From positions 1,312,001 to 1,376,000 of the forward strand of contig CAVXVB010000009.1 in assembly GCA_963765205.1 (NCBI GenBank): DNA of 64,000 nt, written 5' to 3'. Origin of the DNA: an uncultured Verrucomicrobiae bacterium (GTDB taxonomy: Bacteria; Verrucomicrobiota; Verrucomicrobiia; Opitutales; JABDGR01). Both the position numbers and the translations under genes were made by a program. Positions 7,654-51,413 of this stretch are shown in pieces. The notes under the pieces were generated by a model that saw only the letters and a program-made list of their open reading frames with translations, did not search any database and had not been told where the DNA came from. Position 1 is the stretch's first letter. Every line of letters begins with the position of its first letter.

Positions 7654-7716
7654 GGTAGGGACGGCTCTCCGAGCCGTCCGCGGATCCCGCCTAAGCGGGA
7701 GAGTGGCGTCCCGACC
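7654..7716. repeat. GTAG-family REP pair, second copy disrupted by a TCCCGC/GCGGGA hairpin
   Basis: GGTAGGGACGGCTCTCCGAGCCGTCCG (7654-7680) followed by CGGA[TCCCGCCTAAGCGGGA]GAGTGGCGTCCCGACC. Confidence 0.6.
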
Positions 7717-11073: not shown

Positions 11074-11103
11074 AAGGCCCGCCGGAAAATTCCGGCGGGC
11101 CTT
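11074..11103 (-). terminator. Intrinsic terminator hairpin (duplicate copy)
   Basis: AAGGCCCGCCGGAA-AA-TTCCGGCGGGCCTT, followed by a T-rich run on the minus strand. Confidence 0.7.
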
Positions 11104-11116
11104 CGACAAAAAGAGA

Positions 11117-11167
11117 TGCAGGGGCTGGATTTGAACCAGCGATCCCGCGGCCGCGGGATTATGAGCC
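11117..11167 (-). pseudogene. Duplicated 3' half of tRNA-fMet, interrupted by a 16-bp palindrome
   Basis: 11117-11142 identical to 11431-11456 and 11159-11167 identical to 11465-11473; TCCCGCGGCCGCGGGA lies between. Confidence 0.85.
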
Positions 11168-11390
11168 GTGCTGCGACTCGAGGAAACAACCGTTTCGGTC
11201 AAGTAGCGACTGAAGACCGCCGCCGCCCTTTTGGCGCTTGAGCAAATTTTCCAATTTCCGAGCCGAACCAAGGGGCATGATCAGCCGTCGAGCCACATTT
11301 TCACTGAGTCCAACATAACGGCGACCCTCATTGTTTTGCAGAAGGTAAACCTGATGACTTTTGCCTTGGTTAATGGCTATAAATAGGGAA

Positions 11391-11417
11391 GGCCCGCCGG
11401 AAAAGTTCCGGCGGGCC
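11391..11417 (-). terminator. Hairpin terminator downstream of tRNA-fMet
   Basis: GGCCCGCCGGAA-AAG-TTCCGGCGGGCC directly 3' of the tRNA. Confidence 0.65.
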
Positions 11418-11429
11418 CGTGAAAAAGAG

Positions 11430-11503
<74 letters not shown>

Positions 11504-20780: not shown

Positions 20781-20814
20781 GTAGGGGCGTCCCGCGAAGC
20801 GGGACTGCGCCCTC
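20781..20814. repeat. GTAG-family REP whose centre is replaced by a TCCCGCGAAGCGGGA hairpin
   Basis: GTAGGGGCG[TCCCGCGAAGCGGGA]CTGCGCCCTC versus intact copies at 24146-24172 and 24193-24217. Confidence 0.75.
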
Positions 20815-24145: not shown

Positions 24146-24217
24146 GAGGGCGCAGCAAGTCTGCGCCCCTACAAAAACGGGCTGTGCGCAATGTAGGGGC
24201 GCAGTCTTGCTGCGCCC
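24146..24217. repeat. Inverted pair of GTAG-family REP sequences
   Basis: GAGGGCGCAGCAAGTCTGCGCCCCTAC (24146-24172) and GTAGGGGCGCAGTCTTGCTGCGCCC (24193-24217). Confidence 0.8.
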
Positions 24218-35344: not shown

Positions 35345-35350
35345 AAGGGT

Positions 35351-35420
35351 GTGGACCGGTGGAATCGAACCACCGGGACCAGTTTGGAAAACTGAAGTTT
35401 TGTCGCAAAACTATGTCCGC
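35351..35420 (-). pseudogene. Degenerate full-length copy of tRNA-Gly(TCC)
   Basis: 61/70 nt identical to 51344-51413; two acceptor-stem mismatches, D-loop GG lost, anticodon loop and T arm intact. Confidence 0.8.
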
Positions 35421-51342: not shown

Positions 51343-51413
51343 TGCGGGCAGGTGGAATCGAACCACCGAGATCAGTTTGGAAAACTGAAGTTTTGCCACT
51401 AAACTATGCCCGC
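51343..51413 (-). tRNA. tRNA-Gly(TCC); CCA not encoded
   Basis: GCGGGCA TA GTTT AGTGGCA AAAC T TCAGT TTTCCAA ACTGA TCTC GGTGG TTCGATT CCACC TGCCCGC A: fully paired cloverleaf. Confidence 0.92.

Follow-up and report, generated by a model that had tools for sequence, protein, structure and literature searches.

The short palindrome TCCCGC-N3/4-GCGGGA forms the conserved end of a small nuclease cassette that lies at tRNA genes, and the same hairpin recurs in related genomes in copies that carry no gene. On balance we incline to the reading that a small, selfish cassette with an Slx1-like GIY-YIG nuclease (∼88 aa) lodges at tRNA genes, that the hairpin serves as its recognition end, and that the hairpin also spreads gene-free. 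The window, the whole stretch of 64,000 nucleotides that was analysed, belongs to a genome with an assembly of 4.02 Mb (G000). It holds three such hairpins, at 7685–7700 (loop CTAA), 11143–11158 (GGCC) and 20790–20804 (GAA), where an earlier reading made from the letters alone (the sequence-only reading) had placed them: 0.13 would be expected in 64 kb, and at least three were obtained in 0 of 100 shuffles. That reading described a tiny element in structured non-coding DNA, with target bases lost and an enzyme probably encoded elsewhere, and this part stands; a fixed loss of 8 bp and the independent overwriting of a tRNA, which it also proposed, do not.

The cassette of the window lies at 11 kb. 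Its target, an intact tRNA-Met(CAT) gene that we take to be of the initiator type, was found at 11429–11503 on the minus strand (ARAGORN; Rfam 66 bits). The 3′ half of this tRNA makes up, together with a terminator-like hairpin, the first copy of a duplicated segment (11389–11456, minus strand, self-alignment). A decayed mini GIY-YIG nuclease gene follows at 11159–11374 on the minus strand (identified by translation, Pfam, homologues and alignment), then the micro-hairpin TCCCGC-GGCC-GCGGGA as the cassette end at 11143–11158, to which no strand is assigned, and finally the second copy of tRNA 3′ half and terminator at 11074–11142 (minus strand, alignment), which has diverged from the first. 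The 216 bases between hairpin and tRNA, overlooked in the sequence-only reading, are thus a gene remnant: the start codon is gone, a 72-nt in-frame deletion is present relative to the intact gene of the relative G003, and the Pfam GIY-YIG match (E 0.0014, 19.3 bits) lies below the cut-off of 22.6. The last codons and the stop of the gene fall within a tRNA-anticodon-like stretch directly before the hairpin. The duplication spans ∼70 bp, and its terminator is host DNA, since one of the same type lies 3′ of the tRNA in the close relatives G001, G004 and G006, which present clean empty sites without the cassette. The 8 nt that the hairpin replaces in the downstream copy are retained in the intact tRNA (11457–11464); because this tRNA is intact and the difference of 8 nt belongs invariably to the end of the cassette, the host loses nothing here. 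What had been taken for an independent overwrite of a host target is instead the conserved end of a nuclease cassette, and the statement that there is no target duplication is right for a short one at the tRNA copy and missed the long one. Since 11143 is a conserved cassette end, the three hairpins of the window are not equivalent events.

A protein search of G000 yielded no intact nuclease of the cassette subfamily, and the local gene is probably dead. A second mini GIY-YIG gene, seemingly intact and of a different subfamily, lies at G000:C8:347400–347780 (L002), 3′ of a decayed sequence that we take to be tRNA-Ser-like and separated by 73 nt from a CCCTCC repeat that is filled with the hairpin; it is a candidate active enzyme of G000. 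A UPF0213-like GIY-YIG gene (L001, G000:C9:728190–728613) adjoins a tRNA-Gln, and a hairpin of the TCCCGC kind is absent nearby.

Protein searches in the order and in a species collection gave 80 loci with nuclease homologues, some of them repeated. The layout is constant: an intact tRNA-Met, the host 3′ half with downstream DNA, the nuclease gene, the hairpin and a second 3′ half, often in tandem, with a short tRNA-like arm at the 3′ end of the gene providing the stop codon. The homologues were found by protein search alone, and in 33 of 36 distinct near-complete ones the hairpin lies at most 90 nt from the gene end, the same place as in the window; in the three exceptions it is decayed, upstream and absent, respectively. 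The cassette measures ∼300 bp and has the nuclease as its sole reading frame. Intact nucleases are single-domain proteins of 86–99 aa, the corresponding atlas clusters span 82–99 aa (PF01541), and a search against NCBIfam gave weak matches only. Of 401 genomes of the phylum, 34 contain the pattern of the junction, some matches having unmatched arms, versus 0 for the control among the matches listed. Among the homologous loci, the junction occurs mainly in Verrucomicrobiota, and also in records titled Patescibacteria, Acidobacteria and Kiritimatiellae. Viral contigs gave 0 matches to the junction, and no plasmid relatives of the nuclease were found.

Counted by hand, the host's own tRNA sequence continues past the hairpin in a run of at least 30 nt in 24 of 45 comparable copies, and ahead of the hairpin the likeness to tRNA extends over at most 12 nt in 42 of the 45. 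A tRNA-Asn subfamily of cassettes bears TCCCGA-type stems and differences of 8 or 10 nt. Additional hairpins sit in T-loops and D-arms of the cassette tRNA copies, so the hairpin is also placed apart from the nuclease gene. At a few loci (L048, L093) it lies in a full-length tRNA 5′ half, which means that true substitution in a whole tRNA copy occurs. The G003 cassette is divided between two contig ends (L048 and L071, at the ends of C7 and C78), and at the G003 sugar-transferase locus a hairpin-filled tRNA 5′ half stands opposite an inverted nuclease gene, a rearrangement or a misassembly. Nested micro-hairpins were seen in G146 (L007 and L014): CCAGC-AAA-GCTGG and a TCCCAC-type variant in the T-arm, with no bases lost.

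In the whole of G000 the motif TCCCGC-N3/4-GCGGGA occurs 33 times against ∼2 copies expected, a 16-fold excess that places its frequency, a check suggested by the sequence-only reading, above chance. Thirteen copies have a 3-nt and 20 a 4-nt loop (1.03 expected per length), the remaining loop lengths from 0 to 15 yield 0–3 copies each, and the arms in reversed order, used as control, give one copy with a 3-nt and four with a 4-nt loop. No other 6-bp hairpin is over-represented as strongly in this genome (log10 p −27; runner-up −9.8). Per genome the count ranges from 0 to 146 across 201 genomes of the order and from 0 to 33 within the genus: the hairpin is real and patchy across relatives, like selfish repeats. 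Its outer flank is not conserved. Directly beyond one side, T[CT] is found in 20 of 32 distinct flanks in G000 (background 0.27), and this bias recurs in G003 (8/15), G188 (11/15) and G122 (11/15) among the 15 loci listed per genome and is absent in G089 (4/13 among the loci listed).

It is very improbable that these hairpins arose by chance, by misassembly or by convergence on a stable fold, whether as terminator or RNA helices or through template switching. A few single copies are indeed of this kind, as the ∼2 expected copies would suggest. The copy in the 23S rRNA (G000:C5:556123) was rejected as an insertion: the same GCAA loop caps an ordinary helix in 2 of the 9 matching family genomes, G001 and G006. 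One or two G000 copies fall in ordinary coding frames, probably by chance. Among the assembled contigs of four read runs, no piece shown spans any of the three window sites. As a general account, however, chance, convergence and artefact are refuted: the excess is confined to loops of 3–4 nt, the counts differ among relatives over the range given above, the same junction is present in dozens of independent assemblies, and template switching, being local, is unable to write one fixed stem into unrelated flanks. Two single loci may be added here. A hairpin with a 5-nt loop at G000:C9:227167, in surroundings that we take to resemble an RNase P RNA gene, may be a native helix, and at G000:C9:924982 a REP filled with the hairpin lies in frame within a gene, presumably one for a sugar ABC-transporter ATPase-like protein.

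In some genomes the lone hairpins can be tied to the cassettes by their dialects. In G188, 99 of 146 lone copies share the exact loop of the G188 cassette; this loop is found in 61 of 105 copies in G122, where the cassette loop is one base off the commonest lone loop, and in 0 copies in G089, G033 and G000. Both G188 and G122 thus carry one exact 15-mer in varied flanks (15 loci each). The cassette of G089 has a 4-nt loop, as do 48 of the 50 copies listed for this genome, eight being identical (hand count). G135 has a cassette with a TCCGGC stem, and nine lone TCCGGC hairpins (control 0) versus three of TCCCGC. In G000 the cassette's own loop recurs once only; this copy lies in coding DNA and may be due to chance.

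A cassette-type nuclease is present in 12 of 17 genomes with at least 13 hairpins and in 14 of 183 others (odds ratio 29 in a Fisher test that excludes G000, treats kin that are not independent and includes two rich genomes with high control counts among the 17). The threshold of 13 is one of three tried: 10, 13 and 20 gave nuclease odds ratios of 16, 29 and 16. GIY-YIG had been on the list of gene families that the sequence-only reading wished to see correlated with the motif. Five hairpin-rich genomes (G029, G128, G145, G178 and G192) lack a cassette-type match; a Pfam search of these returned UvrC-sized matches only in three, two small genes in G029 and, in G178, one small GIY-YIG gene at a tRNA without a TCCCGC hairpin. 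G128, G145 and G192, all of genus g57, have 16–24 hairpins in genomes of ∼2 Mb, and a small GIY-YIG gene was not found in them.

Y1/RAYT genes are enriched in the hairpin-rich genomes as well (12 of 17 versus 53 of 183 others, odds ratio 5.9), which speaks for an alternative in which an HUH enzyme (RAYT or IS200-type) moves the hairpin and the GIY-YIG cassette is moved too, or is a mere carrier. HUH enzymes cut and rejoin single strands, a chemistry that provides the joining step. In addition, G000 has two clear Y1 genes but no intact cassette nuclease, the host repeats of the hairpin are mostly REP-like and bear GTAG tags, and one of the two Y1 genes has, at a distance of 81 nt, a CCCAGGG repeat that contains the hairpin and whose partner copy is empty. 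We nevertheless consider this alternative unlikely: the Y1 association is weaker than that of the nuclease, and G033, G089 and G146 are hairpin-rich and possess the cassette-type nuclease with no Y1 match at E 1e-12. Furthermore, the GTAG tag is missing from the hairpin itself, and both stem and loop dialects follow the cassette.

The other two hairpins of the window lie in host repeats. That at 7685–7700 is part of a GTAG-tagged double-hairpin REP-like repeat at 7655–7716 on the plus strand (family A, 6 filled and 10 empty copies). The original sequence at 7685 had been thought impossible to reconstruct; the 10 empty family members have 7 nt in its place. The hairpin at 20790–20804 lies in a GTAGGGGCG REP-like repeat at 20781–20812 (plus strand; 1 filled and 14 empty copies), in the spacer between groES, which we assign from its translation, and groEL, which was identified by Pfam. 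Empty GTAGGGGCG repeats were aligned at 24146–24172 on the minus and at 24193–24217 on the plus strand.

Comparison of filled and empty members of seven G000 repeat types gave replaced lengths of 5, 5, 6, 7, 7, 8 and 10–11 nt: 5 nt in each of two tandem arrays (of a 9-mer and of a 7-mer), 6 nt in the CCCTCC repeat, 7 nt in both the double-hairpin REP and the CCCAGGG repeat, 8 nt in the GTAGGGGCG repeat and 10–11 nt in its sister family. Among 52 rows for the tRNA copies of relatives, 8 nt are replaced in 37, almost all at one tRNA-Met position, 6 nt in four, 7 nt in one, 9 nt in one and 10 nt in nine. Across 14 distinct target types the loss is thus 5–10 nt, with one nested case (L007) as the no-loss exception, and the rule of exactly 8 bp falls. 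The two comparisons behind it had been read correctly, with 8 nt differing at both the tRNA copy and the GTAGGGGCG repeat; their agreement is a coincidence. In the seven repeat types no short target-site duplication was found, bases being lost instead. A repeat with a 21-nt alternative, probably another insert, was omitted from the length count; such a long repeat has three copies (G000:C9:881672, C11:189354 and C5 near 49,000), two with the hairpin and one with the 21-nt alternative.

The replaced lengths, which the sequence-only reading had proposed to tabulate, vary, though not randomly. The first and last bases of the replaced piece are complementary in 13 of the 14 target types, and 7 of the 14 have at least two complementary end pairs (local null 0.05; 0.25 for at least one pair), so that the target symmetry noted in the sequence-only reading, a weak palindrome, holds up. 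Ends shared with the element were trimmed before this comparison. As the test is post hoc, as 'empty' denotes another member of the repeat family and not an ancestral allele, and as part of the targets form the loops of stems in the host repeats, the symmetry is no proof but a rule that awaits testing.

In G000 the loop of a lone hairpin goes with the repeat family that hosts it and not with the cassette, and the orthologous groES-groEL spacer of G001 lacks the entire repeat; most of the 33 G000 copies are therefore probably passengers of host repeats that acquired the hairpin once or a few times, and from the repeat families we estimate roughly 10–15 founding events. Both observations would also be expected if the hairpin were immobile now: repeats would have acquired it on a few occasions long ago, when they recombined with cassette ends in a homology-assisted or illegitimate way, and it would have multiplied with them, with no dedicated swap; the hairpin may then be kept as a binding site. 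The same filled repeat families are present in G003 and G089, and several filled CCCAGGG repeats of G003 have the loop of the empty form, as expected from recombination. Retention of the old loop inside an added stem fits some of these G003 copies; it does not fit the CCCAGGG copies of G000, because no empty form has their loops. Against old acquisition as the whole account stand the exact 15-mer in many unrelated flanks, with 99 copies in G188 and 61 in G122 (15 loci seen in each), and the range of targets, which share one end symmetry although they comprise seven types of repeat and at least seven positions in tRNAs, and we regard it as rather unlikely. Other stems (TCCGGC-, TTCCGC- and GCCCGC-) fill CCCAGGG repeats at G000:C5:209191, C5:668642, C9:489654 and C9:706746, suggesting that several hairpin dialects use the same slot. 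In G003 and G089, a long reading frame crosses the hairpin at six loci, and the readable ones look like variable linkers or chance and yield no replaced length.

Returning to the cassette as the source of the hairpin, we infer that the hairpin is mobile and that the nuclease takes part in its movement. By analogy with SsnA, which recognizes the same core, the nuclease would bind the TCCCGC/GCGGGA stem in single-stranded or extruded DNA and would nick the foot of its own hairpin as well as the foot of similar small target hairpins. Host repair could then join the donor hairpin in place of the target tip, a 'hairpin-tip swap', and a one-sided join combined with recombination in the tRNA 3′ half might give rise to the long duplication and the cassette as a whole. 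The chemistry of GIY-YIG nucleases is hydrolytic, and we know of no joining step for them; because the family has no known joining catalyst, movement by an HUH enzyme and old acquisition are both kept in play. In its strongest form, the proposal states that the bare 15–16-nt hairpin is an actively mobile non-autonomous element, that the ∼88-residue GIY-YIG nuclease swaps it for stem-loop tips and that the same reaction at tRNA arms spreads the gene; this we put forward tentatively, as possible and rather doubtful.

SsnA is a GIY-YIG protein of 94 aa that binds a hairpin with a TCCCGC-N4-GCGGGA core and cuts single-stranded DNA next to it; the sequence of the stem is required, that of the loop is free (Chenal et al. 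2025, PMC11893778). These authors suggest that NTS-ssnA is of mobile-element origin and was domesticated, and the two Verrucomicrobiota in their genome table both have 0 in the columns that we take to be NTS counts (PMC11893778). The cassettes share with Ssn (SsnA, CDD cd10448) a single-domain GIY-YIG protein of ∼90 aa adjoining a hairpin, and with the NTS of Neisseria a consensus that includes exactly TCCCGC-N4-GCGGGA, with gene-less copies scattered genome-wide. In contrast to these systems, the SRM flank pattern fits none of the 33 copies in the genome and none of the 47 cassette junctions, and two proteins flanked by NTS (L224, L169) share a C-terminal motif that is found in 0 of 40 proteins of the tRNA-Met type. 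In the cassette one hairpin lies 3′ of the gene inside the tRNA copy, whereas ssnA has NTS on both sides, and the main text of the Ssn paper neither mentions tRNA nor shows mobility or target replacement (PMC11893778). L224 and L169 form their own long branch in a short and poorly resolved tree that used 22 of the 40 cassette proteins, which points to a probable position of the cassette proteins outside the cd10448 clade.

The best solved relatives of the cassette protein, PDB 1zg2 (E 9e-8) and 1ywl (E 2e-6), are UPF0213/Slx1-like and share with it a minimal stand-alone GIY-YIG domain. Prokaryotic Slx1-like proteins are predicted repair enzymes, with no link to tRNA genes or hairpin repeats drawn in the sections on them (Dunin-Horkawicz et al. 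2006, PMC1564403). For REPs and REPINs, palindromes that carry no gene, movement in trans by a co-evolving RAYT has been proposed (Bertels and Rainey 2011, PMC3116915). As described there, REPINs are doublets, far longer and tied to an HUH enzyme, whereas here a bare 15–16-mer enters REPs and replaces bases. By analogy, hairpin and cassette appear to resemble both Ssn/NTS and REP/RAYT, with a small enzyme, a cognate palindrome and gene-less copies; we place them in neither. DDE transposons and MITEs differ in that no short target-site duplication is present here, and IS200/IS605 (HUH) elements in that they insert without target loss, whereas 5–10 nt are lost here.

Small dispersed repeats (SDRs) are ∼20 nt or longer, and to our knowledge no enzyme is known for them. 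They are described as very small, apparently mobile sequences that enter palindromes, SDR5 entering HIP1, and in the sections that treat them they are reported only from Nostocaceae (PMC5861425, PMC2884548). With tRNA-integrating elements the cassettes have in common the intact tRNA, a cargo, the duplicate 3′ half and the tandem arrays. Integrative elements that target tRNA genes (prophages, islands) restore the tRNA 3′ end. The cassettes differ from them in their size of ∼300 bp without a tyrosine or serine integrase, the nuclease being the only gene, and in a hairpin-marked boundary just past the anticodon arm, with a duplication that can extend through the terminator. In the literature outside subscription journals and two supplements of PMC11893778, our searches brought up neither mini GIY-YIG cassettes at tRNA genes nor a swap of hairpins; in the sections of a 2026 preprint that deal with NTS repeats, these serve as a benchmark only (10.64898/2026.09.22.753630).

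Three things were put to the test here: the tRNA-Met cassette family of Verrucomicrobiota, the correspondence of lone hairpins with the dialect of the cassette, and the rule for the replaced tip. For the question of how short palindromes (dRS3/NTS, SDRs, REP variants) multiply, the cassettes offer one testable unit: a donor hairpin, a tRNA target with empty alleles and a candidate enzyme of 88 residues, together with natural variants of stem and loop that co-vary with it and a rule that predicts the bases replaced. If mobile, the 15–16-base hairpin would be among the smallest DNA pieces known to move. Should the swap be true, it would constitute a new, substitutive mode of DNA movement, in which no known passenger would be smaller and few known catalysts as small, and the nucleases would extend the sequence-specific single-strand cutters beyond cd10448.

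Two further tRNA observations were made in the window and its genome. Two tRNA-Gly(TCC) genes 16 kb apart (35348–35420 and 51343–51413) are each part of a repeat of 120 nt, the two copies being 80% identical; the gene at 35348–35420 reaches only 40.7 bits in Rfam and is perhaps an attachment-site scar. At G000:C9:1287772–1289206, a cluster of seven tRNAs is followed by a gene with a Y1/HUH domain, perhaps a mobile tRNA array.
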